IMG/VR virus record: IMGVR_UViG_3300033067_001009
Span: 11,905-75,904 of that record
Source: a virus
Taxonomy: Duplodnaviria > Caudoviricetes
Reading direction: 5' to 3' (one strand)
Length of the DNA: 64,000 nt
The notes beneath the pieces were generated by a model, which was given only the letters and a program-made list of their open reading frames with translations, did not search any database and was not told the DNA's origin. Positions 1,369 through 63,991 of this stretch are shown piece after piece. Each line of letters opens with the position of its first letter. The stretch's first letter is position 1. The translations under genes and the position numbers were made by a program.

Positions 1369-2946
1369 GTGACCGTCCCGTCACCTAACCCGATAGGAGT
1401 TAGAAACAAAAACAGTATGGCAGTAGAGTTAAAACCCAACTCGCAGTACGTATCAGATGCGGCTTTTTTTGCTAATCAAGGTCTCGGCTCGTCGTTACCT
1501 GTATCAAATCCGACCGAACCAGCCACTTCGCAAGAGCCTGTACAAGATGCACCTGCTAATCAAGGGCAACCAACCGCAGCACAACTACCGTTGAACCCAA
1601 TCGCCGCACCGTTTCCGGCCTCGGAATTGCCGCCGCCTCCGGCAGCAGAACCAACACCGGCACCGGTCGTCGAGGAACCGACCATCGATCCCAACGATCT
1701 GTTCTCAACGGAATTACCGAATACCGTTCCCGAACCGGCTCAAGACCCCTTGAGTGTCGACACTGGAACAGTTATTCCGGACGTTTCGACCACTGTTTTC
1801 GACGAGTTCAAACCGGCAGCAGACGCTCCGGACTGGCAGCGAGAGCAGTTTGCCAATATCGTCAACGACCCGAATTTCAGCGAGCAGGACAAACGCGACA
1901 TCCTCGCGCAGAATCCGCACTCGTGGGTCAAGCAACGTAAATGGCAGCGTGACTCCAGAACCCTCGGCAGATTCAGAGACCCGAACGTCCCGATCACGGA
2001 CATCCTCGGCGCTCTGAGAGAGCAGAACACCACTCGGGCTGAACAGCTTGAGATCGAGAGTGCTGCTTCTCTGCTATCGAACGCCGAGAAAATCGTACGT
2101 TTTGCGGAGAGCCAGCCGGAAGTATATTCCCAACTGATGCTCGCGTTAATCACGGAAGCTCCGGAACAGATGACGCAGGTACTGGGAAAGCAAGGTTACC
2201 TCGTAACCAAAGCTGAACCGGCGAACGCCGACGACATCTTGGCGAAGCTGATGGAGAATCCGTATTACGCATCGATTCGGGACACCGAGTTCGGTGACGA
2301 GGTCGTCAACACGATTCGTGATCTGGCGACAAAGGCAGGTTCCACGGAACCGACCGAGCCGACCGAGCCGAATCAACCGGCACCGACCGGCTTCCAGAAC
2401 CCTGAGTTCGTCTCACGGGTCACGGAGACCGTCGAAACCACCAAGACGCAGGTGTGGGACAAAGCGTTATCGGATGGACTTGCCCGTGAGGGGATCAAAC
2501 CGGCGACCAAGGAAGAGATCGCCGCCAACCCGCTCGCGTACTTCAAGACCATTATGCACAACATCGCTGTTCACGGGTTGGAGGGCGTAGTCCCCAGCTC
2601 GGACAAGCAGATCGACAAATTCGTTGGTGACAATCCGGACTATCTGGAGACCTTACAGGCTCTGGATCGGTATCTCAGCAGCGGAGAGTTGGACAAGTTC
2701 AAGGATGAAGCGAAGACGCTTGCTCCGGTGTACCACCAATTCGGTGCGGCACGAGCAGGAATCCCGTTCATCAAGGGGCTGTACAACCAAGTACAGAAAC
2801 TTCTCGGGGAGAAACCGGCTGTGACTCAGCCGCCGCCTCCCGAACCGACCGTACCGCAGACCCCGACCGGCAACCCGCCGATTACACCTCGTGACAACGG
2901 GTGGGCTTCTGACAGGTTGTTTTTCGAGAAGCAGAACCGACAATAA
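1369..2946 (+). CDS. Probable capsid scaffolding protein
   Basis: 525 aa with Pro/Glu/Thr-rich disordered ends and a helical core, between portal and capsid. An alternative ATG is at 1417. Confidence 0.5.
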   Translation: MTVPSPNPIGVRNKNSMAVELKPNSQYVSDAAFFANQGLGSSLPVSNPTEPATSQEPVQDAPANQGQPTAAQLPLNPIAAPFPASELPPPPAAEPTPAPVVEEPTIDPNDLFSTELPNTVPEPAQDPLSVDTGTVIPDVSTTVFDEFKPAADAPDWQREQFANIVNDPNFSEQDKRDILAQNPHSWVKQRKWQRDSRTLGRFRDPNVPITDILGALREQNTTRAEQLEIESAASLLSNAEKIVRFAESQPEVYSQLMLALITEAPEQMTQVLGKQGYLVTKAEPANADDILAKLMENPYYASIRDTEFGDEVVNTIRDLATKAGSTEPTEPTEPNQPAPTGFQNPEFVSRVTETVETTKTQVWDKALSDGLAREGIKPATKEEIAANPLAYFKTIMHNIAVHGLEGVVPSSDKQIDKFVGDNPDYLETLQALDRYLSSGELDKFKDEAKTLAPVYHQFGAARAGIPFIKGLYNQVQKLLGEKPAVTQPPPPEPTVPQTPTGNPPITPRDNGWASDRLFFEKQNRQ

Positions 2947-2982
2947 GTTTTTAATACAGGTAACGACACAGGAGACATAGAA

Positions 2983-4401
2983 GTGGCAAATAATACAACG
3001 ACACTCGAACTACCCAAGATGGTAGAAATCCTCGAAGACCTGCGTGTCCATCAAGTGTTGGAATGCAAGTTCGAGAGACGGATGCGGGAAGTCCAGACCA
3101 GTTTGAACTGGAACCCCCGTGGAATTTTAAGCCCGTACGAAACGGAAAGTGACTACAACCACTTTGCCGTCTCGGAAGCTGGTGTGATCCAGTCGGGCGG
3201 CACGTCGGAATACCAGATTCTCAAGCAGACGATGCGGAGCCTCTGGAAATCCGTGAACATCACTGGTGAACTTGCGCGTCTCAAGAGCGAGCAGTTCGTC
3301 GGCATCAAGGAAGAATACGGTCAGGAGATCGACGACACGATGGCGATGGGCTTGGCCTCGCACCGCGCCATCGAGACCATTCTCAAGCGGTCTTCCCAGA
3401 TTTACAAACGGCTCAAGAATTTCTACGCCATCAACGGCGTAGACAGCTCGCCCATCGGTTCGGTGACCGGCGCTCCGGCGGGTAACGTTGTTCCGTTCGC
3501 GTGGACGGGTGATGTCGGCAACCGGATGTTGTTCAAAGGGATGAAAATCCAGTTCTACGACATCTCGGCCACGACCCTCCGGAAGAACTCCGGCGACTAC
3601 GGCGCACCCCGCTCGGAGACGCAACAGTATTCGCAGGTGTCGGCCACGGTCGATCACCGGTATTCGATCAACGCCGCCAACAACGGTGCCGTGACGTTCG
3701 ACGTTCTGCCGACCGTCGCACTGGCCGCTGGCGATACGGCGCACATCCTGCAAGGCTACGGCGCGATGCCGCAGGGCTTCTTTTACTGGGTTAGCGACAC
3801 CGGTAACCTAAATGGTTCAGCCGGTAACATCGCTCGCTCGGTCTGTCCGGAAGTCTTCTGCTCGGTCGTTCAGGACAACTCGGCCAACACAGCCAACACA
3901 CCGGCACTGATGCTGGCGATGGAGTCGATGTTCCGTGGCAAGATGTCGGAAAACGAACCGATTGCAATGGAAATCTGGATGAACAAAGCGCAGGTCTACA
4001 AGTACCAGCTGTTCGGTATGAACAGCTCGGTCGCAGGTGGCGCGGCGTTCAACGTCAGCCGGTTCGGTGATTGGACGGCTCCGACTGCGATGGATGTCGG
4101 CATCCCGCACAAGGGACTGTCGTTCAACAACATCCGGATCGAGGAAGATCGGGACGTGCCGCCGTCGAAGAACATCTGGATCGACTGGCTCGGCTGGCAG
4201 ATTGACCAGCAAACGCCGGACACGATTTACGAATACCATCAGAACCAGCAGATGTTTCAGGCTCACTCGGCGTACGGCGAGCCAATCGACGCGAAACAGA
4301 TCACGATGTTCTCGCAATACAACTACCGTTGCACCAAGTTCAAAACCCAAGGGTTTCAGGACGACTTGGCGTTCGACGGCAACCAGATTGCCCAGCCGTA
4401 A
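2983..4401 (+). CDS. Probable major capsid protein
   Basis: 472 aa, strongly codon-biased, follows the scaffold, has an AGGAGA RBS and is followed by a terminator. Confidence 0.6.
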   Translation: MANNTTTLELPKMVEILEDLRVHQVLECKFERRMREVQTSLNWNPRGILSPYETESDYNHFAVSEAGVIQSGGTSEYQILKQTMRSLWKSVNITGELARLKSEQFVGIKEEYGQEIDDTMAMGLASHRAIETILKRSSQIYKRLKNFYAINGVDSSPIGSVTGAPAGNVVPFAWTGDVGNRMLFKGMKIQFYDISATTLRKNSGDYGAPRSETQQYSQVSATVDHRYSINAANNGAVTFDVLPTVALAAGDTAHILQGYGAMPQGFFYWVSDTGNLNGSAGNIARSVCPEVFCSVVQDNSANTANTPALMLAMESMFRGKMSENEPIAMEIWMNKAQVYKYQLFGMNSSVAGGAAFNVSRFGDWTAPTAMDVGIPHKGLSFNNIRIEEDRDVPPSKNIWIDWLGWQIDQQTPDTIYEYHQNQQMFQAHSAYGEPIDAKQITMFSQYNYRCTKFKTQGFQDDLAFDGNQIAQP

Positions 4402-4417
4402 GGTTGAGCAATAGCTC

Positions 4418-4450
4418 GGGGGAGCAGCAGAGGTTTGTGCTCCCCCTTTT
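4418..4450 (+). terminator. Rho-independent terminator after the capsid gene
   Basis: GGGGGAGCA-11nt-TGCTCCCCC followed by TTTT. Confidence 0.7.
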
Positions 4451-4511
4451 CAGGGTTTGTATCATTGACTAAAAGTCGAGCGCTAGGTGCGAACCCTGTT
4501 TTCAAATTTTA

Positions 4512-5345: not shown

Positions 5346-5802
5346 CAAAGCAAAAGACGAAGATAAGAAAGCGGAAGACACCACGAGTGTCGACACTCAA
5401 GAGGTATCGGCAGCCGGAGAACCGGCAGCGGATTTCAAACCGATTCCGGAACACGCAGTTGCCGCCGCGCCGGTAGACGTTCCGGTAGGTGAACCGGTCG
5501 CCAACGCGCCGGAAGAAGAGGGGGTCAATCTGGTTAGCGATCTGACGGCGCTCACCACGGCCGCAGCCGGTAAGGTCGACAGACTGATGGAGACAGGCTT
5601 GAAGTTCCAGCAGTTCGTCCGTGAAAACGAAACCAAATTTCGCCGGATCGAGAGCATCCAGCAGGGCTATAACACGCTTAAAGAGGTATCGGATGATCTG
5701 TCGAAAATTATCGACCTCGCCAAAATCGATGCCCTGACGAAGCAGCTGGAGGACGCTCTCGCCAGTATCCAGCGCAAGGAGGCAACCGGACAAGATGCCT
5801 AA
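5338..5802 (+). CDS. Hypothetical protein, acidic N-terminus plus coiled coil
   Basis: ATG preceded by GAGGAGGAG; contains a repeat copy read as SVDTQ. Confidence 0.6.
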   Translation: MSNKAKDEDKKAEDTTSVDTQEVSAAGEPAADFKPIPEHAVAAAPVDVPVGEPVANAPEEEGVNLVSDLTALTTAAAGKVDRLMETGLKFQQFVRENETKFRRIESIQQGYNTLKEVSDDLSKIIDLAKIDALTKQLEDALASIQRKEATGQDA

Positions 5803-6973
5803 GATGAACAAGGTCGTGTCGGGTGCTCTTGACAGCATCCGGCGCGTCATCCAACACCACGAGCAGTGCAAGTTCGTCATTCATTTCTGGATGCCGTTCT
5901 TCAACATTGCGATGGGGGGTTTCAGATTCCCACAGATTCCGGACGATTACATACCGTCCGGAGTTTTGATTCCGCTCGTCGACATTACACAGCGGCACAT
6001 CGATTCGTTCGCCCACCCGACCACGGGCAAGTTGACGGTCTTCGAGTCGCCGTTCACCCAAACCATCGTCCAAAGCTATCTCGACCTCCAGCGTCGGTAC
6101 GGCAGGTACGGACTAACGATGGTTGAGCCGCTCTCGTGCACGCTGGGTGAGGCTGAGGAGACCATCGAAGCGTTCGACTTGATGTACTCGGAGTTCAACG
6201 GGTATCTACAAGACCTTGCGGATTTCTTCCGCATCCAGTCGCCGGTCGCTCACCAGCTCGACAATCCGATCAAGCGCTGTAAGGTCACGTACGACCAAGC
6301 TCTCGACAACCTGCTGGCAAGCGGACGTATCTCCGAGGTTATGTACCAGCGGCTAATGGCTGCTGTCCACGACTTCCAGCGTTCGGTCGAGTTCGCTCAC
6401 CGGACAGCCTTGTCTCCTCAGGACGGCATCCTGCCGAACTCCATCAAGTACGTCAACGCCGGTACCAAGAAAGACGGACTGGATGAGGCCGATCTCTGGA
6501 TCGCTCGCCAGTTCCCCGACTTCAAGGTCAGCTCGCGTTTGCAGGGCAAGGAAGATACCAACAGCATCGACAAGCTCGTCGAGGTGTTGGCCGACCGTCT
6601 CGTCGGAACCCCGAAAGCCGCAGTCGTAAATCCGTCCGCAGCACCGACCGATCTCTGGGCGCTTCTGACGAACGCGACACCGGAAGAGAAAGCAGCGCTG
6701 CGAGCGATCCTCGGCATCGACACGCAGCCGTTGGGTACTCCCGCAGCTGTTCCGGCGACTTCGAGTGTCGACACTCAAGAGCCGGAGGCAGTCGATTACG
6801 AGGACGCTTACGACCCACCGGCATTCACGCAGCAGTGCAGCGGTACCACCCGCAACGACACCCGCTGCAAGCTGGATGCTCGGCAGGGTCATATGACTTG
6901 CACGGCACACGCCGATCAAGAGGAGTCGATCCTCGCAGCGATGCGGGGTTTAGCGGAGCAAGCAAGTGCATAA
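5795..6973 (+). CDS. Hypothetical protein with C-terminal Cys3-His zinc-knuckle-like motif
   Basis: CSGTTRNDTRCKLDARQGHMTCTAH resembles DUF5763-type motifs. Confidence 0.55.
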   Translation: MPKMNKVVSGALDSIRRVIQHHEQCKFVIHFWMPFFNIAMGGFRFPQIPDDYIPSGVLIPLVDITQRHIDSFAHPTTGKLTVFESPFTQTIVQSYLDLQRRYGRYGLTMVEPLSCTLGEAEETIEAFDLMYSEFNGYLQDLADFFRIQSPVAHQLDNPIKRCKVTYDQALDNLLASGRISEVMYQRLMAAVHDFQRSVEFAHRTALSPQDGILPNSIKYVNAGTKKDGLDEADLWIARQFPDFKVSSRLQGKEDTNSIDKLVEVLADRLVGTPKAAVVNPSAAPTDLWALLTNATPEEKAALRAILGIDTQPLGTPAAVPATSSVDTQEPEAVDYEDAYDPPAFTQQCSGTTRNDTRCKLDARQGHMTCTAHADQEESILAAMRGLAEQASA

Positions 6974-11012: not shown

Positions 11013-11037
11013 TTCGAGTGTCGACACTCAAAGCACT

Positions 11038-12738
11038 ATGACAATGACTCCGAGTGAGAGAGCCGAGATACTTCGGGAAGCAATGGGATTCCAAGACCCA
11101 GCCGGTCTGACCGCATTCATTCAACGGCAGAGCGCACTGGGTCGCCTTATCTACCCAGACTACCAGAGCACTCAGGCAATCACTGCCGGAGGAACCAACT
11201 TCTGCCCCAACTCCGATTTCGCGTGGTCTCATATGGCCGCAACCACCGCAGGTATCACCCCCGCCACAGCCGGAGACACCAATTACGAAATATACAGCGT
11301 GTTTCGGCAGGTTCAGGGAGCCAACATAGGTACCGACCGTGTCAGGTCTTCCGGTCACTCACTGTATGCGGCGAACGAGGGAGTCAGCACTTGGATTCCA
11401 ATCTGGGACAGGGTACAGGGCAACGTACATCTCGGTACAGGAACCATCGGAGCCGCCAACTACGACATCGCCGTCCAGATGACTAACTCGTGGTTGCAGA
11501 ACAACAGATTCAGGTACGTCCGTGTAGCGGTTGCGACGGACGGTACCACTCCACTTCCGGTCGGCGCAAAACTCTACGCCGGTTACTGGGCAAAGTTCAG
11601 CGGCGGCACCGAGGGCTGGGTGACAGGCGACGGGTTTACTATCTCGTACCGGAGACACGCTCCGGTCGGAACCCGCCACCTGCAATACCTTGTGATTGCC
11701 AAAACTTCGGTAGGCACTTCTCTGGAGAGTGCCGTGCTGGACGTACTAGACGCGCCGACCGACCTCGACTCCAACAACTACATCGAGCTGACATATTCAG
11801 ACGCTACCGGATTCATCCAGTTCGAGGTATACCGCAAAGACGTGGCGACCGGTCGTGTCGACTTAATCGCCAATGATGTCAACTCGTCCCAGCTCTGGGC
11901 GTATGACATCGGCCAGTCAATCCGCGTCGAGACAGCCGGATTCCCGTCCGGAGATATGACGGATCACCGAGCCTACTCAGAAGTGCTGCTGGATGCGGTG
12001 GATTACGCGCAGCAGCTCACGTTCCACGATCTCAAGGTTCGAGTACCGGCAACATTCGACACCTCTCACCTTGTGACTGTCTACCTGAGAATCGGCATCA
12101 AGGATTTGGTCGCCGCTGACAGGCAGATTATTTTAGACACTGTGTGGGAAAGCGACAGCTTCAATGTCTGGTCACCGTCAGCCTTTGACGTATACCCCAG
12201 CCCACGCTCAACGACTCTCGCTACGGCACCACCGAGCGGGGGGACTAACCCGACAGACCATCCTCCGGTCGGAGGAGGTGTCAGCTGTCTATGGACAGGT
12301 CACGACATCCTGACTTCCGGAGGGTGGTTAAAACTGGAGGAGTTACGGGAGGGTATGCGCGTAAAGACCGGAGCACCTCTCCCTAATCTGGTAGAGAGAA
12401 TCCGATGGGCTACCGTCAGCCAGTACTTTATACTGGAGTTCAGCAACGGGGCAGTCCTCATCGCTACCGGCAGCCACCGGTTTGCCAGATCGCTGTACGA
12501 TGGCTCCGGAGTTCAGGTAGCCAATATGGAAGCCGGTGACACCGTACTGGGCGGGGATACTTCGCAAGGGGACTACGACATTACCCTGTTGTCTAAAGAG
12601 CTGGTGTCAGCTTCCGCGCAGCTTCCAGTGGCGACACTCAAGCATACCGCTAACAGCCCGAATAAGCTATACAGAGTGGGGTGTAAACTCACGGGTGTGT
12701 ATGTCAATTCGCACAACCTAAAGTCACCTGACTTATAG
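11038..12738 (+). CDS. Tail-associated protein with C-terminal Hint (intein-like) domain
   Basis: Pro/Gly linker, then C(LWTGHDI), a TGSHRF block-B motif and terminal SHN followed by only LKSPDL*. The Hint domain spans 12286-12717. Confidence 0.75.
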   Translation: MTMTPSERAEILREAMGFQDPAGLTAFIQRQSALGRLIYPDYQSTQAITAGGTNFCPNSDFAWSHMAATTAGITPATAGDTNYEIYSVFRQVQGANIGTDRVRSSGHSLYAANEGVSTWIPIWDRVQGNVHLGTGTIGAANYDIAVQMTNSWLQNNRFRYVRVAVATDGTTPLPVGAKLYAGYWAKFSGGTEGWVTGDGFTISYRRHAPVGTRHLQYLVIAKTSVGTSLESAVLDVLDAPTDLDSNNYIELTYSDATGFIQFEVYRKDVATGRVDLIANDVNSSQLWAYDIGQSIRVETAGFPSGDMTDHRAYSEVLLDAVDYAQQLTFHDLKVRVPATFDTSHLVTVYLRIGIKDLVAADRQIILDTVWESDSFNVWSPSAFDVYPSPRSTTLATAPPSGGTNPTDHPPVGGGVSCLWTGHDILTSGGWLKLEELREGMRVKTGAPLPNLVERIRWATVSQYFILEFSNGAVLIATGSHRFARSLYDGSGVQVANMEAGDTVLGGDTSQGDYDITLLSKELVSASAQLPVATLKHTANSPNKLYRVGCKLTGVYVNSHNLKSPDL

Positions 12739-12742
12739 GCAC

Positions 12743-12771
12743 TTGCATTACTGCATAGTTTGTAGTAATAT
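12743..12771 (+). promoter_or_regulatory. Sigma70-type promoter
   Basis: TTGCAT-17bp-TAATAT in the intergenic gap; RBS AAGGAG precedes 12826. Confidence 0.55.
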
Positions 12772-12825
12772 TTTGTGAGTACCCAACCCAGCACCTAGCG
12801 CTCGACTCTTTAAGGAGTAACTCCA

Positions 12826-14186: not shown

Positions 14187-16573
14187 TGAACAAGATTCTG
14201 TTTACAATTTTATTCGTGCTGCTGCTTTGCGTGTCGACACTCGCAAGCAGCATTACCGTTAATCCGATCACCGTCTCGTCGTGGCGCTATCCAATGGTTC
14301 AGGGTATCAAAGTTCGCATTTACCCGAACAATACATTCCTGACATCGGACGGTTCATTGGTTAAACGTGGGCAGGTAGGTGTGTCCCAGTGGTATAAAGA
14401 GTACAGCTGTACGGTGAGCGGCACCAACGTGACCCTCCCGACAATGACGTTGGATTCGACCACGGATTCAGACGTGCCATCAGCATCATACACAGCGATC
14501 TTCTTCGACTCTAAAGGCAACAAGATAGATACTTATTACAACGCTTTCAGAGTCCCGTCTACATACGGATCGACAGTTACTTGGAACGACATCCGAGCGT
14601 ACACCGAGTCCGTCAGCATCACGCTGCCGAGCGGGTATTATCCGGTTACCACGACCGATTCGAGACTGGAGAAAGACCTATCGCTGTACAGCAACTCTTT
14701 AACCACAGCAATCGCTGCTCTGGGCGTATCTGACACCACGCTGGGGTGTACCCGTGCTGTGACGGTCTCAGTCGATACCACGATACCCAAGAACCTCAAG
14801 CTCCGACCGAGCAGCGAGTGTTTGATTACGGTCGCCGCAGGTAAGACCCTGACTATTAACGCGATGGTCGAAGACCCTGTCAACTGGCGTATCTTCAACA
14901 CCACCGCAGCGGGAGCCAGCGTACGATTCGGAAAGGGCGCTGTACACCGGATGAATATCAACTGGTGGACTGGCAGCGCCACCGGCGCTGCGGTCGACGC
15001 TACCGACGCGATCTCGGAGGCACTGGCCTCGACCACTGCCAACGCCGGAGGGACAATCTATTTCCCCGAGGGCAACTACACGACGACCGGAGGACATCAA
15101 GGAGCGGACAACGTGATTGTCGAGGGGGACTCGAACTTCGTCAGCTACGGGTATGGAGGCACCAACCTCAAGCTGGTTTCACCGACGACCACGTATATGT
15201 TTAAGATCGGGGAGGGGGAGTTCGGAATCCGGTTCAAAAATATTTTACTTGACGGTACAGGTACGACCGGCAAGGATGCGATTCTTTTACAGGGTGCGTA
15301 CCCGAACACAAGTGGCGACCTCAAGTTCACGAACGTCACCATTCAGAACTTCGCCATCGGACTTCACTACAACTCAACCTCCGGAAGCTGGCAGTTCGCC
15401 CAGATCGGATTCGACTCGTGTATCTTTCAGACCAACACAGTCGCCGTCTCGGCCAACTCGTTGAACTCGCAGCTCACGTTCGAGAATACGAACTTCGCTG
15501 TACCAGCTTCCGGAAAGGCTTTCGATATGGCTGGCGGCGGGTTGCTGACAGTCAAAGGGTCGGAGTTCGCCGGAGGTGGTTCAACATCCAAGGTCATCGT
15601 CATCAGCGGGGCGCACGTACAGTACGACTTCATAGGTGTGCAGGACGAGAACTTCGGGACGTTCTTGCAGAACGATGCGAGCGATGTCTCCGGCATAACG
15701 AACATCATCGGGTCGCTGATCCAGTCGAAGATTCAGCTTAACCAGACGTGTACGCTGAACTCGTTCGGAAACAATTACCTATCTAAAGCATTCGTGTTCG
15801 GAGTCGGGGCAACTCCATTCGTCACCAGTCGTGGGGATCACATCCGAGGAGTGGATGTGGCAGACGGGGTAACCGTAGTGTCTCCACCCAGACTGGCGAG
15901 CGATGTAACTAAGCAGGACAACATCGTGATCGAAGAGAACGGTATCAATACCGAGCTGAGATACAGGCAGCCGGTTAAAGTGATCTCGCCTTTGATCTAC
16001 GACAGCACGTCGACCATACCGTTTTCGGTAGGCATCTACCAGCCGAGCGGCGTCGACAAGCCAGCGATCCGGTTCGGGAGACTGGACATCAACGGGGCAT
16101 TCGATTACTACTACGACATCACCCGTGAGTACAGCACCGGACGTGCTATATTCTCCGGCAATCAAACCGGATTCGTTGGTTACGAATTTCGCAACGGTGA
16201 CGTGTATGTCAGCGGTGCGATACGCGGTCAGTCCTACCAACTGACCGATGCCGCCACGATCACGTTAGACCCGAAAGCTGGTAATCACCAATACGTGACT
16301 CTGGGCGGCAACAGAACGCTGGCGATGCTGGCGTTGGGTGCAGCCGAGAAAACACGGTCGGACGGAATGAGACTCACAATCGAGATCATTCAAGACGCGA
16401 CCGGAACCCGTACCTGTTCCCTGTCGACCGGTTCGGCGGGACAGTTCGTATTCGGTACCGACATTGCAAGTATCACCTGCACGGTAACGGCGAACAAGAG
16501 AGACCTGCTCACTGTCGTCTATTCGGCTAGAATGGACAGGTGGATGGTCGTGGATTTCAAGAAAGGTTTTTAG
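14186..16573 (+). CDS. Tailspike/depolymerase-like protein with beta-helix and N-terminal signal peptide
   Basis: Starts MNKILFTILFVLLLCVSTLA. Contains a pectate-lyase-3-like motif (AISEALAST..AGGTIYFPEGNY) and a C-terminal phage fibre domain (LTIEIIQDATGTRT...DLLTVVY). Confidence 0.7.
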   Translation: MNKILFTILFVLLLCVSTLASSITVNPITVSSWRYPMVQGIKVRIYPNNTFLTSDGSLVKRGQVGVSQWYKEYSCTVSGTNVTLPTMTLDSTTDSDVPSASYTAIFFDSKGNKIDTYYNAFRVPSTYGSTVTWNDIRAYTESVSITLPSGYYPVTTTDSRLEKDLSLYSNSLTTAIAALGVSDTTLGCTRAVTVSVDTTIPKNLKLRPSSECLITVAAGKTLTINAMVEDPVNWRIFNTTAAGASVRFGKGAVHRMNINWWTGSATGAAVDATDAISEALASTTANAGGTIYFPEGNYTTTGGHQGADNVIVEGDSNFVSYGYGGTNLKLVSPTTTYMFKIGEGEFGIRFKNILLDGTGTTGKDAILLQGAYPNTSGDLKFTNVTIQNFAIGLHYNSTSGSWQFAQIGFDSCIFQTNTVAVSANSLNSQLTFENTNFAVPASGKAFDMAGGGLLTVKGSEFAGGGSTSKVIVISGAHVQYDFIGVQDENFGTFLQNDASDVSGITNIIGSLIQSKIQLNQTCTLNSFGNNYLSKAFVFGVGATPFVTSRGDHIRGVDVADGVTVVSPPRLASDVTKQDNIVIEENGINTELRYRQPVKVISPLIYDSTSTIPFSVGIYQPSGVDKPAIRFGRLDINGAFDYYYDITREYSTGRAIFSGNQTGFVGYEFRNGDVYVSGAIRGQSYQLTDAATITLDPKAGNHQYVTLGGNRTLAMLALGAAEKTRSDGMRLTIEIIQDATGTRTCSLSTGSAGQFVFGTDIASITCTVTANKRDLLTVVYSARMDRWMVVDFKKGF

Positions 16574-16575
16574 CT

Positions 16576-16593
16576 TTGAGTGTCGACACTCAA
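16576..16593. repeat. 18-bp perfect palindrome TTGAGTGTCGACACTCAA
   Basis: Intergenic; immediately followed by GAGGAGG and the GTG start at 16608. Confidence 0.95.
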
Positions 16594-21029: not shown

Positions 21030-22568
21030 GTGGGCATCTTGAAAGACATCTTGAGTATGATACAGCCGAAAACTTCCCCCCTCGCACGGTGGCAGAACGG
21101 TACACCTCCGTCCGTCACCGGCAACCCTTTGGGGGATGAAGACCAAGACCCCAACGATGCCGACGATCAGACTCCGCTCCCGAGAATCAAAATTCCGGAT
21201 GACGAGCAGACCAATCCGGTCACGTGGCAGACGAAGTTGCCCCCCGTGAGTGTCGACACTCAAAGCACCGATCCGAGTAAAGCGTCAGGTGAGGCTGGTA
21301 TGGCTCCGACCGAGGATGTTCCGACCCCACTCGTGCCGCACCCGTTTCCGACGAATCTGATTCCGCAGGTACAGGGCAGAGCACAAACACCTGTACCGAT
21401 GCCATCACTGAATCAGAACGAGTACAGCACCAAGGCTCCGATAACCATTCCGGTACCGGCGCTCAATCCGAACCAGCAGACCGACAGCAAGCAGCGTCCG
21501 ACCAGATTGCCTGTTTATCGTAACCGTCTGGAGGAAGCGATCAATGCGCGGAACCAGCTGAACACAGTGAACCCGCGCGATCTCGACCGTAATCCTGACA
21601 GCAAGCTGACGAACATCGGCAAGGCTATCGCGTTGAATCTGCCGAATCTACAACAAGCGCTATTGAACCCTAACCTTACAGACAGGGAAGCGTTTATGAC
21701 TACCCTCGGGTCTCTTATCGGATCGACAGTCAGCGGACTGGTCAATCCGTACGGAGATGAGCGGCAACAGCTTGAGTACCAGAAGTCACAAGCCGAAAAG
21801 GACGTGACGGAAGCGCAGGGTATGTACGACAAGAATCTGGCGAACGAGCTGGGGGAAGCCAGAGTCGACGACATCTACACCAAGCAGGACGAACGGGAGC
21901 GCCGTCTCGACCAGCGGGATGTAGACCTGAAAAACAAGAAATTCGATTTCGCCACTCGCCGGATGAACGCATACACGAACCTGCTCAAGACAGGGCAGCT
22001 CGATGCCAAGGACAATCAAGAGCTGGTCGACTCGATGTCTGACTTGGTCGACGCGAAGATCGTTCTGAACGGATTCAATCCGGCGAAAGATAAGATCGTC
22101 GGTGTTAAGGTCGTGGCCGATGCCCAGAACAATCGGGCATACTTGGTGACGACCAACGCCGGAGGTGTCGTCAAGACCGACTACGTACGTGACGAGAACG
22201 GCAACATCGCGTACATCAAAGACCCGAGGGTCAAGGCCGAGGAGATCAGATCGCAGACCAGTCTCGAAACGACCAAGCAGCGGATTATGTCTTCCGAGAA
22301 GCTCAAGGCTATGGAGATCACCAGCCGTGAGAAGCTCGCGCAGATGGGTATCACTCAGAAAGAGATCGACGGTGTGCAGGATGATTTCTACATCGAGTAC
22401 AAGGCGACCGACGAGGATGCCGTCATCGAACGCTCAGCGAAAAAGGCCGGTAAAGACCCGCAGACCTTGACACAGGACGAGCGTGATGTAATACTCGAAT
22501 CGTACTACGACACTGTCCGTGAGCGGATCGCCAAGAACCGAGGTCTCAAAACAAAAGGAACTAAATAG
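21030..22568 (+). CDS. Putative internal virion/ejection protein
   Basis: 512 aa with a Pro-rich disordered N-terminus and coiled coils; coupled to the giant ORF. Confidence 0.5.
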   Translation: MGILKDILSMIQPKTSPLARWQNGTPPSVTGNPLGDEDQDPNDADDQTPLPRIKIPDDEQTNPVTWQTKLPPVSVDTQSTDPSKASGEAGMAPTEDVPTPLVPHPFPTNLIPQVQGRAQTPVPMPSLNQNEYSTKAPITIPVPALNPNQQTDSKQRPTRLPVYRNRLEEAINARNQLNTVNPRDLDRNPDSKLTNIGKAIALNLPNLQQALLNPNLTDREAFMTTLGSLIGSTVSGLVNPYGDERQQLEYQKSQAEKDVTEAQGMYDKNLANELGEARVDDIYTKQDERERRLDQRDVDLKNKKFDFATRRMNAYTNLLKTGQLDAKDNQELVDSMSDLVDAKIVLNGFNPAKDKIVGVKVVADAQNNRAYLVTTNAGGVVKTDYVRDENGNIAYIKDPRVKAEEIRSQTSLETTKQRIMSSEKLKAMEITSREKLAQMGITQKEIDGVQDDFYIEYKATDEDAVIERSAKKAGKDPQTLTQDERDVILESYYDTVRERIAKNRGLKTKGTK

Positions 22569-35257: not shown

Positions 35258-35647
35258 TTATTTTCTGACCTTTGTTACGATATAGCCCGACCCGCTCACA
35301 CAGGTGGCCGACAGTAATGGCTGTGTATATTCGAGCGTGACCCGCTCGCCCTTGTCTGCCGCTTCGTTGATCTGGTTGACGATGTTCGGGTCGGCAACCG
35401 AGAAGTTCCACGTGGTCGGTACGACCGTGCCGGCACCGGTGTTGCTGGCAACACCGACGTTCATCTGACCCTCGTAGGTCTTGCAAAAGAACCCCTTGTA
35501 GGATACCTTGACCGGCACCCCGACACGTTCTCCGGAGCTGTACTCAATCGGCACACCACCGAATAACTTCACCAGTGCGATAATTACTATCACCCCCAGT
35601 ATGACCAAATAGGCACATCCCTCTGTGCGGTCGTCTGATTTACTCAT
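35258..35647 (-). CDS. Membrane-anchored conserved phage protein
   Basis: N-terminal TM, then YSSGERVG...KGFFCKTYEG...WNFSV. The ATG is at 35647. Confidence 0.6.
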   Translation of the reverse strand: MSKSDDRTEGCAYLVILGVIVIIALVKLFGGVPIEYSSGERVGVPVKVSYKGFFCKTYEGQMNVGVASNTGAGTVVPTTWNFSVADPNIVNQINEAADKGERVTLEYTQPLLSATCVSGSGYIVTKVRK

Positions 35648-36716: not shown

Positions 36717-37001
36717 TCATCTGTTCAGGTTGCCTATGTACAAGTTCAACAAACTTTCCAGCTGCAACCTACCAAGGATGATAGCATCACAATATTTTTT
36801 ATTGCAAGTGACGCGACCATCTTTTATCACCCAGTACTCATTGTGTACAAGTCTCTCGAAAATCAAATGAGTGTCGACACTCGTGATACTGTACACGATA
36901 AGGTCTGGTTTTGCCTCGCTGTAAAGGCACTCGAACCCCAATTCCTTGAAGTCCGAATGTCTCAACGTCGGAGTTACGTTTTCGTACGATCCGTAGTTCA
37001 T
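36717..37001 (-). CDS. Hypothetical protein
   Basis: 94 aa, coupled to its neighbours; contains a repeat copy. Confidence 0.5.
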   Translation of the reverse strand: MNYGSYENVTPTLRHSDFKELGFECLYSEAKPDLIVYSITSVDTHLIFERLVHNEYWVIKDGRVTCNKKYCDAIILGRLQLESLLNLYIGNLNR

Positions 37002-39563: not shown

Positions 39564-39816
39564 AATTTTATCTCCAGTGTCGACACTCGTGACTTGGGGA
39601 AAACCTACGGAAAGGGGTTCTTGGGGTGGACAAGAGTGATACCTGCTTGGAAGCGTAAACTTCGCTGCATCTCTTAACCCAAGAAAAAAATCTTTCGATT
39701 CTCATAAGTTCGCAAGTGTGACGTTCTTGTTATTTTTAAGGGTAAGATTCATTATACTTGATACTTCTCACCCTTGTTACTTCTAATGTCGGTCTCCTAA
39801 AGCAGCGGATGCCTAG

Positions 39817-41980: not shown

Positions 41981-42422
41981 TTTTAATCTCCTCCTCGATT
42001 TGTTCGACTGCCACATCGAGCGGCAGTGCTATGGTTCCGCACACGATTCCGAGCGCATTACTCAGCAACGTGTCCAGCTCGAATACAGCACCGGCCTTTT
42101 CCCACATCTCGATCCGCGCCGGACGCATATCGCTGAACCGATTTTTGTTTACCCGTTCTTGGTAGCGCCGGATGTAGGTCGATGCTTTCTTAAGATCGTC
42201 GATCTTGTTGTCGTGCTTCCGACCGGCGCGGCAGATGTACTTTGCCGCATTACCAAGCCGGAAGTCCAAACGAAAGAACTCGATCACCTCGTCGACGAAC
42301 CACCCGTGGTAGTAGTTCCGACCGCTATGAGTGTCGACACTCGAAGCAGCCGCAGTACCTGCTGCGTTCTTCCAGCAGTAACCCTCGTCCTTTCCGCATT
42401 CTTCACATATTAACTTTCCCAT
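41949..42422 (-). CDS. DUF3310-like (T7 gp1.7-like nucleotide kinase family) protein
   Basis: HSGRNYY...FRLGNAAKYICRAGRK...DDLKKASTYI. Confidence 0.7.
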   Translation of the reverse strand: MGKLICEECGKDEGYCWKNAAGTAAASSVDTHSGRNYYHGWFVDEVIEFFRLDFRLGNAAKYICRAGRKHDNKIDDLKKASTYIRRYQERVNKNRFSDMRPARIEMWEKAGAVFELDTLLSNALGIVCGTIALPLDVAVEQIEEEIKNEERNQHTGA

Positions 42423-43379: not shown

Positions 43380-44537
43380 TTAGCTCCGTTCCCAAGGCAC
43401 GTCATTACCTGACTTGGCTTGGTTTTTCTGCATATCCTGCAAGTGTTTAATTAGCTCAGAAGCAGCTCTCTTGGAAAGATTATCTGTGCCGCACAGGAAT
43501 ACCTTTTGACACTCCTCGTCCGGATCGACTCCGACTTCACGGGCGATGGCTCTGACCATCCCGAGCTGTTTTGCAGTTACCAAATCCGACAGACTTCTGG
43601 CAACCGGACTCGCCGGAGTGCCGCCCCCGCCGCCATAGTTGCCGCCGCTGTCTTGGCCTCCCGCGAATCCGCCGGTCGCTGCCGCATCCTTTTCGTACAG
43701 GTCACGACCGATACCGAACAGCACGGCTGCCCGTTTGAGAGCGTCGGACGCTGCCCCTTTGACTGCCAGTTCCCACGCATCGTCGCCAATAGTCCCGTCG
43801 CGTTTGCGAACGAGCGAGCTGGCACCGACACCGTCACGCTCGGTACGGAACCCGTCCTCCATCGTGATCGTCAGACGGCCACGGCAGATCGCCGTCGTGT
43901 CGGTGAAGTTGATGTCCACGACCGTGAAGCTCCACGCCGAACCGACGACCGAATCGAGAATGTCGGTGACCGTGTTCCACTCGATGTACGGCACATCTCC
44001 CCAGCTCATCGAGCGGGTCTTGACGAGCTGCTTCGGTACCGGCGCTCTGAGCTGTGCCAGCCATCCCAGCTTGGTGACGGGAATGATCGACACGACCGGT
44101 TCGACCGTGTCGTCCTGAATTTGTTGTTGACTCACTTGTTGTTTCTCCTGTTGTTTCGGAGGAGCTGCCGTTGGCCGCGCCTCTTTTACTGTGCTATGTG
44201 TCCTGCGCTCGGCAGCCGCTGGGGCTGCTTGCGTACCTTGATCCTTGTTGGCGAAATGGATCGCCGCCCAAATGTGTTCGCATCGGAAATGCCGATCCGT
44301 ATTTGCGTCCTTGTTCTCCTCGAACTCCGGACAGTTACAGATAACCGCATTCGTATGCGGGTGTCTGCCGACGAAGTAAATTTTCTGCTTACCGGCCACG
44401 CTCGCCGTCTTGACCTCGAACTCGCTGCCGTTGCGGCTGACGTTGCCGAGCGCGACTAGCGCTTTGCCTCGCTTCTCGGGGTCTTTGTGCCAGCTCTCCT
44501 CCTGAACCGGAGTAGCTGCTTGTTTTTTAGCTGCCAT
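43380..44537 (-). CDS. Rad52/Sak-like single-strand annealing protein with N-terminal SWIM-type Zn finger
   Basis: VPYIEWNTV..ILDSVVG..WSF and KGAASDALKRAAVLFGIGRDLY; CNC...CEH finger. Confidence 0.8.
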   Translation of the reverse strand: MAAKKQAATPVQEESWHKDPEKRGKALVALGNVSRNGSEFEVKTASVAGKQKIYFVGRHPHTNAVICNCPEFEENKDANTDRHFRCEHIWAAIHFANKDQGTQAAPAAAERRTHSTVKEARPTAAPPKQQEKQQVSQQQIQDDTVEPVVSIIPVTKLGWLAQLRAPVPKQLVKTRSMSWGDVPYIEWNTVTDILDSVVGSAWSFTVVDINFTDTTAICRGRLTITMEDGFRTERDGVGASSLVRKRDGTIGDDAWELAVKGAASDALKRAAVLFGIGRDLYEKDAAATGGFAGGQDSGGNYGGGGGTPASPVARSLSDLVTAKQLGMVRAIAREVGVDPDEECQKVFLCGTDNLSKRAASELIKHLQDMQKNQAKSGNDVPWERS

Positions 44538-45039: not shown

Positions 45040-45345
45040 CTATTTGTTTCCGACACCATCGATAGCCAGCGCTTCCGTCAGTGTCTCTTTACACTGCCAA
45101 ACCTCAACCTCGATAGTATCCCCGACTTTGTAGTAGTCTAACTGCTTACTGAATAACTGGCAGTACTGCCGCCGGTCGGAACCCCAGTTACTCCTCTGGA
45201 CTACCTGAACTATGTGGCGTTCCTTATCTCGTACGTCACGCAGCTCGACGGAGTAGTGCCGGTTACAGCTACCTAGCAACGATGCCATCACCAGCATCAC
45301 ACCCACGCTGGCCGCAAGGCACAGCATAATATCTATTAACTTCAT
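45040..45345 (-). CDS. Secreted or lipoprotein-like hypothetical protein
   Basis: Hydrophobic N-terminus ending LLGSC. Confidence 0.45.
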   Translation of the reverse strand: MKLIDIMLCLAASVGVMLVMASLLGSCNRHYSVELRDVRDKERHIVQVVQRSNWGSDRRQYCQLFSKQLDYYKVGDTIEVEVWQCKETLTEALAIDGVGNK

Positions 45346-45656
45346 ATCATCCCCTTTATTATTTCCCAGCAGTCGTCCAGATCGTATAGGTAATAACTGC
45401 CACGTTGACCCCTACCTACTCGGGTTACCTTGTCTCCGAAAACTCCGGAGATCGTCCAAGCCTTGAGTGTCGACACTGGAATCTCGGCCACAGCAGCCAT
45501 CGTATCAGTGTCCACCTTAATCATCGTTATTGGAATATAGCGCTCATAAGTACGGTACTTTGCCGATATAAGCTGCTCTACCGGTATTTCACAATTACGT
45601 TTCATCCTCCTCCACCCAGATACTGACGGCGACTCTGGGATTAGCCTTGTCGTCAT
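45342..45656 (-). CDS. MerR/excisionase-like HTH protein
   Basis: TDTMAAVAEIPVSTLKAW...GVF....RVGRG....YLY. Confidence 0.5.
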   Translation of the reverse strand: MTTRLIPESPSVSGWRRMKRNCEIPVEQLISAKYRTYERYIPITMIKVDTDTMAAVAEIPVSTLKAWTISGVFGDKVTRVGRGQRGSYYLYDLDDCWEIIKGMI

Positions 45657-46153: not shown

Positions 46154-46441
46154 TTATCCTCTTAACTTTACCAGCAACGCTTTCGCGTCACCGAATGCTT
46201 TTAATACCGCAGTGTCCAGCGCCGACTCGACACTGTCGAATGCGGGTACTACCCGTACAGTGGAGCACCCGATAGCGTCTACCAGCGCCTTGAGTGTCGA
46301 CACTAGAGCGCTGTAATTGTTGATTGCCTCTTCAAGAAAGAGAGCCTCGCCTTTCGGCAGCTCCGAGCAATCGACGATGATCTTGTTTGTGGCATCCTCG
46401 ATTGTTTCGCAGCTACCGTAGTATTTAACCGGAAGTATCAT
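46154..46441 (-). CDS. Hypothetical protein
   Basis: 95 aa; contains a repeat copy read as VSTL. Confidence 0.45.
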   Translation of the reverse strand: MILPVKYYGSCETIEDATNKIIVDCSELPKGEALFLEEAINNYSALVSTLKALVDAIGCSTVRVVPAFDSVESALDTAVLKAFGDAKALLVKLRG

Positions 46442-50003: not shown

Positions 50004-50102
50004 AATCCTCCTGCCTTGAGTGTCGACACTGAAAGAGGGTGGGGCATCACCCCCACCCTCACTTTGGAGACAAGCGTATGTCAAACGCTCAAGGGAAACT
50101 TT

Positions 50103-51825: not shown

Positions 51826-52203
51826 TTATTCGCCCTCCTCTTGGCCTTGAGTGTCGCCACTCAAAGCAAGCCTGTTAAAGAATCTCTTACGGCGCTCACG
51901 GTCTCCGTCGTTGACCTCCGACCAGCCGCATCTTACCTTGGAGATCGGCTCCTCGCCATCTTCCAAGAACAGTTTATTGCGCCACCAGATCAACCCCAGC
52001 TCCCGTTCGAGCGACGGTAGGTTCATCCGGCCATAGTATTCGGCAGACGTGGGGTTCTGCGGAAAGCGACGGAGGCAGATGACGGCCAGCAGCGCACGGT
52101 CGACAGTTATGTCGAACTGCTTGCGGACATCTTCCATCTCACGAAAGGGGACACTCTCCGTCTCCGTCCCCCGTTCGCTGAACAGTACGACTTCGTACCT
52201 CAT
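51826..52203 (-). CDS. Hypothetical protein
   Basis: 125 aa; contains a one-mismatch repeat copy at 51847. Confidence 0.4.
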   Translation of the reverse strand: MRYEVVLFSERGTETESVPFREMEDVRKQFDITVDRALLAVICLRRFPQNPTSAEYYGRMNLPSLERELGLIWWRNKLFLEDGEEPISKVRCGWSEVNDGDRERRKRFFNRLALSGDTQGQEEGE

Positions 52204-56576: not shown

Positions 56577-56600
56577 TAGTTCCTCCTTGAGTGTCGACAC

Positions 56601-56954
56601 TCATAACGACCACAGTGATTTATAATCTTGGATCACCAGCTTCTTGCACTGCTCGGGAAGCTGGTCGAACGGGATGCGTTTACCGAGGTGGTTCTTGCGC
56701 CCCATCGCCGGAGCGTAGCCCCACTTATTCGTATCGATACTGCCCTGATTCTCACCGTGCTGACCGAAACCTTGCGGGTGGAACGGATTGCTGCTCATCC
56801 CGACATACCAGCAGCTGCCTCCGGTACTGCGTCGATAGTTGCCGGTGTACACCACCGTGTACCTGTCCCAAGTCTCGCCGCCGTTATCATAACACCGGAC
56901 GTACTTGGGCACACCGTCCGGCATCAGTCTTTGTTCACGATTGTTTGCCATCAT
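56601..56954 (-). CDS. Conserved phage early protein
   Basis: YDNGGETWDRYTVV...MSSNPFHPQGFGQ...HLGKRI; the stop TGA is part of the repeat. Confidence 0.6.
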   Translation of the reverse strand: MMANNREQRLMPDGVPKYVRCYDNGGETWDRYTVVYTGNYRRSTGGSCWYVGMSSNPFHPQGFGQHGENQGSIDTNKWGYAPAMGRKNHLGKRIPFDQLPEQCKKLVIQDYKSLWSL

Positions 56955-60850: not shown

Positions 60851-61235
60851 AACTCCTCCCTTGAGTGTCGACACTCATAGCGTTGGCGGCAGCGACAGCC
60901 ACCGTCTTTACCAGTTCCCACGTCAGGTCTTCGTTCGACAGACCGAGCGGCGGGTTGACGATTTGTTCAGTGGCTTGGAAGTTACCGCAGAGACCGCAGT
61001 GACAATCTACCAAGTCGATGACAGTGACAGAGACTGGGGACAGTTCCCCAGTCTTAATAAGTTGATTCCGAGTGAGCTGGTATGCGGGTTTGGGGACAGC
61101 TCGTTTAACACGGTCTTTTGCGAATCCGATCACCGGCAAACCGTGGCCGTTCATTCTTACGTTGTACATAGCTTGAACTCCTATTATTAAGTTGTATTTG
61201 CACCTGACGGTACACGGACAGGTTCGAGCCTCCAC
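60828..61235 (-). CDS. Hypothetical protein with CxCxxC
   Basis: Ends with the repeat-encoded SVDTQ. The true start is probably the ATG at 61169. Confidence 0.4.
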   Translation of the reverse strand: MEARTCPCTVRCKYNLIIGVQAMYNVRMNGHGLPVIGFAKDRVKRAVPKPAYQLTRNQLIKTGELSPVSVTVIDLVDCHCGLCGNFQATEQIVNPPLGLSNEDLTWELVKTVAVAAANAMSVDTQGRSYDSLLTS

Positions 61236-62826: not shown

Positions 62827-62854
62827 ATGGTACGAGTGTCGACACTCGTACCAT
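62827..62854. repeat. 28-bp perfect palindrome ATGGTACGAGTGTCGACACTCGTACCAT
   Basis: Intergenic; arms checked base by base. Confidence 0.97.
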
Positions 62855-63172: not shown

Positions 63173-63454
63173 TTACTCTCCGGTCTGGTGCTGTAATACC
63201 GTGGTGTGTTCGTCGAGTATTTCCTGTAACGTCTGGATGAGCATCGGCAGGGACTCTGCCTCGACAGCGATGGTTGCCCGACCGATAACACCTTTGCCGG
63301 TGATCGGTTCGAGCAGTACGATGCCGCCATTATCGCCGTGCGACCGGATCATTGATAATACCGGCAACACGGAGATGCCGGAGCACTTGAAAGTACCGTT
63401 ACGACCTAAGAACCAAGTGTTCTCACCTTTCCATAATATTTCAGTTATCGCCAT
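63173..63454 (-). CDS. Hypothetical protein
   Basis: 93 aa with an AGGAGG RBS. Confidence 0.5.
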   Translation of the reverse strand: MAITEILWKGENTWFLGRNGTFKCSGISVLPVLSMIRSHGDNGGIVLLEPITGKGVIGRATIAVEAESLPMLIQTLQEILDEHTTVLQHQTGE

Positions 63455-63463
63455 AACGACCTC

Positions 63464-63715
63464 CTAGTTTTGAGTCTGGTGCTGCCAGCAGTAGCCCTCG
63501 CCTTTGACCTTACGGGTACAAGTGCCTCCCGATTTGGTCTTCGCTCCGCAAATATGCGACGGAGCTTCGACGGGTTCTACCGACTGGTTCTTGACCGGAC
63601 GGTTGATCGACACGACCCGCACCGGTTCGCACGGTTGCGGTGTCGAAGTTGCTTGCGTCGAGGCACAGGCCGAAGCCAATGCCCCGATTACGATGATCGC
63701 GTAAACACGTTTCAC
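63464..63715 (-). CDS. Secreted/lipoprotein with C-terminal Cys3-His knuckle
   Basis: MKRVYAIIVIGALASAC...CGAKTKSGGTCTRKVKGEGYCWQH. Confidence 0.6.
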   Translation of the reverse strand: MKRVYAIIVIGALASACASTQATSTPQPCEPVRVVSINRPVKNQSVEPVEAPSHICGAKTKSGGTCTRKVKGEGYCWQHQTQN

Positions 63716-63915
63716 GGTGTAACCTCCTCGTTCGCCTCGCTGTCGGGACGAACATCCTGAATGTAGCGGTTATCCTCGCAATCGAGACAATAACCGTATT
63801 CGTACTCCTCGATGCCGCCCAAAGACACATCGAAGTCGGTTTCTGCCGGAGCATTCACGTCAACCCAGAGTTTGATCTGGACACGGTTGCCACGACAAGT
63901 TTCGCATTCCCACAT
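63712..63915 (-). CDS. Small Cys-rich protein
   Basis: CxxC...CxxC with a GAGGAGG RBS. Confidence 0.5.
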   Translation of the reverse strand: MWECETCRGNRVQIKLWVDVNAPAETDFDVSLGGIEEYEYGYCLDCEDNRYIQDVRPDSEANEEVTP

Positions 63916-63961
63916 ATAGGAACCTCCTCTATCTTGGATTTATGCTCTGATGAACATAATA

Positions 63962-63991
63962 CAAGGCTTGAGTGTCGACACTCAAGCCTTG
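63962..63991. repeat. 30-bp perfect palindrome CAAGGCTTGAGTGTCGACACTCAAGCCTTG
   Basis: Intergenic; arms checked base by base. Confidence 0.97.

Follow-up and report, generated by a model that had tools for sequence, protein, structure and literature searches.

Dispersed palindromes in an uncultured freshwater phage as putative docking sites of a small winged-helix protein that varies with the word

A 12-bp palindrome, AGTGTCGACACT, recurs throughout the genome of an uncultured freshwater phage (IMG/VR record IMGVR_UViG_3300033067_001009), in genes as well as between them. What reads this word, and to what effect? The genome is a single 75,904-bp contig; the window analyzed here is the 64,000-nt stretch spanning its bases 11905–75904, and positions refer to that window unless a relative is named. 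We favor the reading, at a probability of roughly 0.55, that the words are docking sites of a phage-encoded dimeric DNA-binding protein. Its parts differ in strength: the words very probably represent double-stranded DNA sites under selection as targets of a dimeric protein; the reader is probably a small winged-helix protein encoded on the minus strand (45342–45605); and genome-wide control of transcription is a tentative proposal for the effect of binding, with somewhat less than even odds.

The 20 perfect copies reported in the initial annotation were all recovered in the window, and the whole genome carries 21. Shuffling the window 100 times with dinucleotide composition preserved gave a mean of 0.02 copies and a maximum of 1. 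As in dispersed phage operator arrays, one word is thus present genome-wide in many copies, far above chance (21 versus 0.02). Density is ~1 site per 3.6 kb on both transcription arms. The gaps between copies are more even than random (coefficient of variation 0.476 versus 0.94; P = 2.6e-4), and the widest measures 7.2 kb where 13.2 kb is expected. Near copies, put at six or more by the same annotation, comprise six with one mismatch genome-wide (0.16 expected) and eight with one or two mismatches in the window; the chance expectation for matches with up to two mismatches is ~4.2, and part of the two-mismatch copies may be chance matches. The near copies—the one-mismatch copies together with two symmetric variants that retain a 10-bp core—fall mostly in the larger gaps of the array.

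The two halves of the palindrome adjoin without a spacer, and the TCGA at its center is self-complementary in every copy. Symmetry extends to 14 bp, as G-AGTGTCGACACT-C, in 15 of the 21 copies, and the flanks commonly take the form YG...CR.

An assembly or adapter origin of the word is excluded, because near-identical contigs from river-metagenome runs of a separate study carry the copies at 36870 and 42330 without differences; one freshwater run contains a 90–97% relative. Nor does the array appear to be host-imposed. Among 185,579 species genomes, a collection of sequenced species searched with this flank variant, an 18-mer gave four single matches against ~9 expected. Both possibilities had been raised with the initial annotation as grounds for abandoning its proposal. 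In IMG/VR, a 14-mer occurs only as single chance copies on unrelated contigs; 66 metagenome contigs with a 16-mer are likewise unrelated to the phage, and a literature search for the word sequence returned only cloning primers. A ~2-kb metagenome sequence (contigs L029 and L068), apparently non-coding and unrelated to the phage, has two copies of AGTGTCGACACT 468 bp apart, one of them widened to a 26-bp palindrome (GTACCCG-core-CGGGTAC), and a short metagenome contig (L036/L053), also non-coding and unrelated to the phage, has two copies. The AGTGTCGACACT core may be used by other elements too.

Relatives of the phage, metagenome contigs of the same lineage, were reached through PolA homologues. 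One relative that shares the word, L090 (PolA 60% identical; part of a 77.8-kb contig), holds seven perfect copies in 21.8 kb, a density equal to that of this phage. Its flanks read (C)TC-core-GAG: The ±1 bases are C..G in L090 and G..C here, and symmetry is retained despite the swap. Four or five of the seven L090 copies are placed orthologously, with neighboring proteins only 35–63% identical: after the DUF8033 gene, in a small helix-turn-helix (HTH) gene, after an intergenic region of ~250 nt, and at the C-terminus of the open reading frame (ORF) at 51826. Perfect 12-mers face each other at 50019 and L090 position 9232, 45466 and L090 13997, 39576 and L090 17697, and 16579 and L099 7201. 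Contigs L093 and L099, probably from one phage, together carry nine copies in 31.6 kb, four perfect and five with one mismatch, and the decayed ones stand exactly where the copies of this phage are perfect. Sites have been lost among relatives by point mutation, not excision, and the L093 array is sparse and possibly decaying.

This retention of orthologous positions, with decay by point mutation, argues against copies that are selfish or host-imposed, whether a REP/RAYT-like mini-palindrome or a word of the HIP1, Chi, or uptake-sequence kind, and we give such origins only a very slight chance. Common flanks within one genome are compatible with copying, Rickettsia palindromic elements show a comparable in-frame tolerance, and the genome is under extreme restriction-site pressure. 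The same word persists, however, across two restriction regimes (CATG occurs 0 times versus 293 expected in this phage and 66 versus 85 in L090), and two further relatives, L097 and L103, have one word in common despite G+C contents of 43% and 54%. To this are added the lack of enrichment in the genome collection, the single chance copies outside the clade in the IMG/VR and metagenome scans, and the absence of a transposase-like gene from Pfam and PHROG scans, which were non-exhaustive and left some small ORFs aside.

In more remote relatives, different palindromes occur at about this density: TTGCTA-S-TAGCAA, TTGTCGGA-S-TCCGACAA, and AATGTGCACATT. L096 and L097, each with a PolA ~44% identical, have five copies of ACCT-TGTCGGA-S-TCCGACA-AGGT in 17 kb and 11 copies of T-TGCTA-S-TAGCA-A in 18.5 kb, respectively. 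Placement in both follows like rules, with sites directly before AGGAGG and a start codon or held in one frame (xATS) in disordered tails. No repeated palindrome was found in L094 or L095. The array is a clade-level trait of these phages.

We asked which protein follows the arrays. Three readers had been proposed: a MerR-like HTH protein (45342), a ParB-fold protein (47120), and a protein with a basic tail (34166). Only the first stood, as it tracks the arrays and its helix varies with the word. The basic-tail protein was rejected because it does not track arrays, being present in array-less relatives as well. Matches to a hidden Markov model of the winged-helix family were confined to this phage, L090, L096, and L097, with none in L093, L094, L095, or L099. 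The family is tiny, with 16 matches in 1.84 billion representative proteins; no PHROG scored above noise, and it is absent from cultured phages.

Three further family members led to contigs (L101, L103, and L104) that served as a forward test. The recognition helix of L103 resembles that of L097, and L103 carries the L097 word eight times, as predicted from the helix. L104 has a different helix and a fourth word, (T)AATGTGCACATT(A), in three copies in 11.8 kb. L101, whose helix is like that of this phage, has the word inside its own winged-helix gene (position 239), at the place occupied here by copy 45466 and in L090 by its ortholog. In total, six of six loci of at least 10 kb with the winged-helix protein carry an array, those beyond this phage being L090, L096, L097, L103, and L104. 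Across loci the word tracks the class of recognition helix, of which there are four: class A (this phage and L090), class B (L097 and L103), class C (L096), and class D (L104). Every lineage also has one site inside the reader gene or no more than 200 nt past its end. A synonymous-site test of the winged-helix gene was uninformative: The word codons are identical here and in L090, as are half of all codons for identical residues.

The predicted structure is consistent with DNA binding by a symmetric pair. The AlphaFold2 model has a beta-alpha-alpha-wing-alpha fold, with a predicted local distance difference test score (pLDDT) above 90 over most of residues 50–100; the protein ends ~10 residues past the wing, which is followed only by a 10-residue helix. 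The nearest Foldseek matches include MerR-type DNA complexes, RacA–DNA, and BldC (probability 0.92–1.0), along with an excisionase and TerS N-domains, and weak Pfam matches are to MerR_1, HTH_17, and Nu1. Modeling supports homodimer formation: The symmetric homodimer scored 0.71 against 0.02 for the best control, past a mark reached by 20 of 30 solved homodimers and one of 23 single chains, and runs agreed in at least 92% of contacts with a partner pLDDT of at least 80. In the model the interface lies in the N-terminal extension and leaves both winged helices free. The interpretation given with the initial annotation is supported in part: Its phage-wide protein–DNA system stands, with one phage protein as the candidate reader, and genome organization or partition, repression, and a coat were the candidate effects that it named.

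The ParB-like protein (47120–47896) was weighed as the reader of a centromere or silencing array of the KorB/ParB type. It matches PHROG 12305, a ParB-like partition protein (E 2.5e-20), and KorB on plasmid RK2 offers a precedent: One dimeric protein binds 12 dispersed copies of a 13-bp palindrome (OB) on a replicon of ~60 kb and exerts effects at a distance. The gene does not track arrays among the relatives, however, and this sets it apart from KorB/OB and ParB–parS. Its sole homologue there, at 40% identity, belongs to L094, a relative free of repeated palindromes, and none is encoded in the sequenced stretches of L090, with its seven copies in 21.8 kb, or of L093, the syntenic place included. 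No Pfam ParB match reached E ≤ 0.01 and no ParA was seen, and we consider this reading highly improbable.

Where the copies sit bears on what they are. Seven of 21 touch non-coding DNA, against 9% expected (8.6% of the genome is non-coding; P = 0.002), and six lie 9–18 nt upstream of a start codon, at places where the entire intergenic gap consists of a stop codon, the site, a ribosome-binding site, and the start. In agreement with the original description, coding copies encode either SVDT, for the most part within disordered Pro/Thr/Ala/Glu-rich linkers (three of the four copies in an 11.6-kb gene for a 3866-residue protein among them), or VSTL; none uses the third frame (Cys-Arg-His). The further suggestion made there, that proteins accommodate the DNA word, finds support in the decayed L099 copies, which read SVNT and SVVT in orthologous linkers.

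The word could alternatively act in RNA, as a hairpin GAGUG-UCGA-CACUC upstream of ribosome-binding sites that serves in processing, as a 5′ or 3′ stabilizer, or as a translation insulator. The six copies before start codons invite this reading, and the order of site then Shine–Dalgarno (SD) sequence recurs with differing words in L090, L096, L097, and L103; intergenic gaps are so short, however, that any intergenic site must abut an SD sequence. The flanks are asymmetric along transcription, with CAA after 13–14 of 21 copies in the sense direction versus 4 of 21 in the antisense direction, but codon choice can explain this asymmetry, through NCG (Thr, Ser, Ala) before the word and CAA (Gln) after it. 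Two copies, 62835 and 63971, are widened to perfect palindromes of 28 and 30 bp whose outer arms differ (ATGGTACG and AAGGCTTG). Half of the copies are intragenic, four of them in the one 11.6-kb gene, and there processing would do harm and an insulator would have no use; a hairpin needs no palindromic loop, yet the four loop bases are palindromic in all copies and lineages. The word also co-varies with a DNA-binding protein, and neither an RNase nor an RNA-binding candidate was found. A dimer on duplex DNA is favored over an RNA hairpin because the palindrome is spacerless, its center is self-complementary, and many copies are intragenic; an RNA-level role appears improbable.

Identity of the word with sigma-70 promoters or terminators was dropped, as the association is not systematic: The inner TCGACA resembles a −35 box, yet an SD sequence and start codon directly follow most copies. 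Topoisomerase IB sites were rejected too, since the CCTT flanks are the complement of the ribosome-binding site. N4-like hairpin promoters served by a virion RNA polymerase found no match either, the 3866-residue ORF being composed of SLT, GHKL, and LPD38 domains with no polymerase match; Pfam and PHROG scans found no phage RNA polymerase, and a T7- or N4-type promoter reading was therefore dropped. Copy 50019 is immediately preceded, in the direction of transcription, by a terminator-like G+C-rich hairpin and TCTTTC (50031–50060); at this position the orthologous place in L090 shows a T-run.

The sites might instead work through the recombination and replication machinery, the dimer or single-strand hairpins marking places for the Rad52-type protein, RusA, or primase, so that the sites would seed recombination-dependent replication or form hotspots of module exchange at gene and domain boundaries. 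In L096, L097, L103, and L104 the winged-helix gene immediately precedes the Rad52-type gene, overlapping it in L096 and L104 (two or three small genes intervene in this phage and L090), although adjacency is weak evidence by itself. A site in the disordered Rad52 N-terminus recurs in four lineages, where alignment does not distinguish insertion from a point-mutational origin because the sites are in unalignable disordered regions. Coverage calls for even spacing, which promoters do not need; the copies fall precisely on the borders of genes and domains; and repeats of Cluster O mycobacteriophages have recombined to give insertions and deletions (PMC4351075). On the other side, recruitment by a sequence-specific partner is not known for any annealing protein, palindromes of 12–14 bp are too short for cruciform extrusion, and the array-less L094 and L095 still have Rad52, PolA, and DnaB. 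We regard this reading as unlikely. A related possibility, which we hold slightly less likely, is a previously undescribed marking system in which the winged-helix dimer, its gene immediately ahead of the Rad52-type gene in most relatives, would read evenly spaced, lineage-specific palindromes where genes and domains meet, and would thereby seed recombination-dependent replication or direct the exchange of modules and domains between co-infecting relatives; if true, it would give a physical basis to the old "linker sequence" idea of phage mosaicism.

Dispersed palindromes are on record in a few phage groups. The closest published parallel to the array is in the Cluster O mycobacteriophages, whose ~70-kb genome has 34 copies of a 17-bp palindrome, TGTTCGG-NNN-CCGAACA, for which a dimeric DNA-binding protein was proposed while reader and function were left undefined (PMC4351075). 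There, too, one invariant inverted repeat occupies short intergenic gaps, places near gene starts, and gene interiors, is mostly conserved in position among relatives, is lost by single base changes, and is absent from the host (PMC4351075). The phages, word, and hosts are unrelated to those considered here; different here are also a candidate reader family that co-varies with the word and coding copies that are held in one frame within disordered linkers.

A MerR-like fold can read a spacerless 14-bp palindrome, because RacA of Bacillus subtilis, a MerR-like winged-helix protein, does so at ~25 dispersed regions, its perfect palindrome TGACGCCGGCGTCA having a central CG (PMC4914108). The modeled phage protein likewise has a MerR-like winged helix-turn-helix domain. 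RacA, however, is cellular and anchors the chromosome, with a long C-terminal coiled coil for binding DivIVA (PMC4914108), whereas the phage protein has 87–104 residues, no coiled coil, and a predicted N-terminal pairing; no sequence relationship between the two was detected. Also absent from the phage protein are the long antiparallel dimerization helix and the C-terminal effector region of the MerR family. In the lytic phage D29, gp36 is a small MerR-like repressor that damps transcription, but it binds GC-rich direct repeats, not palindromes (PMC12266134).

Dispersed repressor sites in phages include the L5 and Bxb1 stoperators, the conserved inverted repeats of phiC31, and the C1 operators of P1. 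Such sites are many copies of one word, ~1 per 2 kb, on both arms and often in short intergenic gaps, and one phage protein reads them and damps transcription; the array resembles them, with the winged-helix protein as the candidate for that part. Stoperators and C1 operators, however, lack symmetry and point along transcription, whereas AGTGTCGACACT is a perfect palindrome, and they are read by the immunity repressors that temperate phages encode. Neither an integrase nor a CI-like or other classic immunity repressor was found when the larger ORFs, but not many of the small ones, were scanned against Pfam and PHROG.

The sequences show strong selection on a symmetric duplex word, even coverage, placement according to tolerance, and words that are specific to lineages and tied to one family of DNA-binding proteins; binding of the word by the protein, and its consequences, are inferred. 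In the mechanism that we favor, a symmetric winged-helix pair would bind each palindrome. Sites are placed at lowest cost, in the few bases between a stop codon and a ribosome-binding site or as in-frame SVDT linkers, and related phages retain this arrangement with a separate palindrome for each protein variant. The two widened palindromes are in larger intergenic regions of the early block, beside or overlapping sigma-70-like promoter matches; the one at 63962–63991 overlaps the minus-strand match TTGAGT-18-TATTAT, which leads to an operator-like reading there. Binding would accordingly act as an operator at these two early-region sites and may act as a roadblock or timer elsewhere, which would recall the stoperators, the phiC31 repeats, and D29 gp36. 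Among possible effects we rank transcription control first, recruitment of recombination or replication factors, or else genome organization, second, and an RNA-level role third.

Several observations weigh against this picture. Helix classes A and C both read VSTLR, but their words differ in half-site spacing. The correlation of protein and word draws on a small number of incomplete contigs from related phages, with phylogeny as a confounder, and L103 and L104 were found through the winged-helix protein itself. Foldseek E-values for the winged-helix model are weak (0.02–0.25). L093 has no winged-helix gene at the syntenic place and nevertheless two perfect copies; the ratio of perfect to one-mismatch copies, 4:5 in L093 and L099 taken as one phage versus 21:6 here (P = 0.096), is a weak signal of decay. 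Copies show no systematic link to sigma-70-like promoters or terminators. The unlike arms of the extended palindromes, as well as sites that abut ribosome-binding sites in four lineages, point to a folded hairpin and not to a plain protein site. Finally, a stoperator-type role in prophage silencing has no support, because no integrase or classic immunity repressor was seen.

Table 1. Copies of the palindrome, near copies, and associated genes, in window coordinates (SD, Shine–Dalgarno sequence)
Feature	Coordinates	Strand	Context
Perfect copy	1753..1764		525-aa ORF 1369-2946, aa 129, PLSVDTG linker
Perfect copy	5386..5397		Disordered N-terminal part of ORF 5332-5802, TTSVDTQ
Perfect copy	6764..6775		392-aa ORF 5795-6973, TSSVDTQ linker
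Perfect copy	11017..11028		Intergenic; 4 nt past ORF end 11012, 9 nt before ATG 11038; one-mismatch ortholog at L099 1669
Perfect copy	16579..16590		Between 811-aa and 103-aa genes; then SD, GTG start 16608
Perfect copy	21249..21260		512-aa ORF, PVSVDTQ; L099 ortholog one-mismatch (SVNT)
Perfect copy	23481..23492		3866-aa virion protein gene, aa 305, PTSVDTQ linker
Perfect copy	26259..26270		3866-aa gene, aa 1231, PASVDTQ linker
Perfect copy	30411..30422		3866-aa gene, aa 2615, TLSVDTA; L099 ortholog one-mismatch (SVVT)
Perfect copy	33845..33856		3866-aa gene, aa 3759, read RVSTL
Perfect copy	36870..36881		Small minus-strand ORF 36717-37001; unchanged in independent river-metagenome contig
Perfect copy	39576..39587		After ~250-nt intergenic region, 12 nt before minus-strand ATG 39563
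Perfect copy	42330..42341		DUF3310 ORF 41949-42422 (minus); unchanged in independent river-metagenome contig
Perfect copy	45466..45477		Within winged-helix gene; encodes VSTL of its recognition helix
Perfect copy	46293..46304		95-aa minus-strand ORF 46154-46441, read LVSTL
Perfect copy	50019..50030		After DUF8033-like gene: terminator-like hairpin, site, SD, ATG (18 nt)
Perfect copy	56590..56601		Fills intergenic gap; overlaps upstream minus-strand TGA stop; 14 nt before next ATG
Perfect copy	60864..60875		3′ end of ORF 60828-61235; 16 nt before next minus-strand start
28-bp perfect palindrome	62827..62854		Perfect copy 62835-62846 inside; intergenic, early region
30-bp perfect palindrome	63962..63991		Perfect copy 63971-63982 inside
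One-mismatch copy AGTGGCGACACT	12627..12638		In 11017-16579 gap of array
One-mismatch copy CGTGTCGACACT	14230..14241		Signal-peptide region of 811-aa gene; L099 ortholog 4858, one-mismatch
Symmetric variant CGTGTCGACACG	32153..32164		10-bp core retained
Symmetric variant GGTGTCGACACC	34844..34855		10-bp core retained
One-mismatch copy AGTGTCGCCACT	51850..51861		Near C-terminus of ORF 51826-52203; L090 ortholog 5592, perfect
Candidate reader, small MerR/RacA-like winged-helix protein	45342..45656	-	87 aa from ATG 45605; 104 aa in longest ORF
Rad52/Erf-type annealing protein gene	43380..44537	-	Two or three small genes away from winged-helix gene
Topoisomerase IB gene, poxvirus-type	35640..36707	-	PHROG 6247, E 6e-100
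ThyX-like gene	40355..42016	-	HNH-endonuclease insert at 40798-41612

The phage has no close relatives among cultured phages (megablast against phages). A 632-residue protein has no close relative in IMG/VR or the protein collection, and structural genes gave no Pfam or PHROG match. A plus-strand block ends with the gene for the polyvalent SLT-GHKL-LPD38 protein. The minus-strand block encodes topoisomerase IB, DnaB, ThyX with an HNH insert, the Rad52/Erf-type annealing protein, RusA, the ParB-like protein, PolA, and an AAA / DUF1257 / DUF2997 / DUF3150-like module.

Other features of these genomes are recorded as observations in their own right. Across the whole genome, 25 of the 64 six-base palindromes are wholly absent, as is CATG, and ~10 more occur once or twice; enriched words are GTCGAC (80 versus 21), TCCGGA (72 versus 21), and TCGA (2.5-fold). 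CATG is absent from L093, L099, L097, and L103 as well and not depleted in L090, L094, or L096. Such palindrome avoidance suggests that the hosts possess very many restriction systems. In two public runs, position 40798 of the thyX-like gene is joined to 41612 on contigs that skip 813 bases and have GCT between, and the insert looks like a mobile element of the intein or intron type that is absent from related thyX genes. Phages of Pseudomonas, Xanthomonas, and Listeria encode homologues of the topoisomerase IB at 44% identity, and the gene is missing at the syntenic place in L090. The PolA genes of L094 (6084–8675) and L097 (5659–8502), of 863 and 947 codons, contain intein insertions called from a weak Pfam Intein_splicing match, and the PolA of this phage has no intein. 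An N-terminal CxC...CxH motif in the Rad52-type protein, similar to a SWIM zinc finger, is present in this phage, L090, L095, and L097 and absent from L094 and L096.

New here are a candidate reader and four words that co-vary across a clade of uncultured freshwater phages. Because the four words change with one tiny protein family, they offer a specificity code that relates recognition helix to half-site. They also provide a case in which a DNA-level signal shapes protein, through a fixed Ser-Val-Asp-Thr or Ala-Thr-Ser insert in the disordered linkers of virion proteins. Should the array control transcription or recombination across the whole genome, it would be a compact principle of regulation, perhaps a common one among phages.

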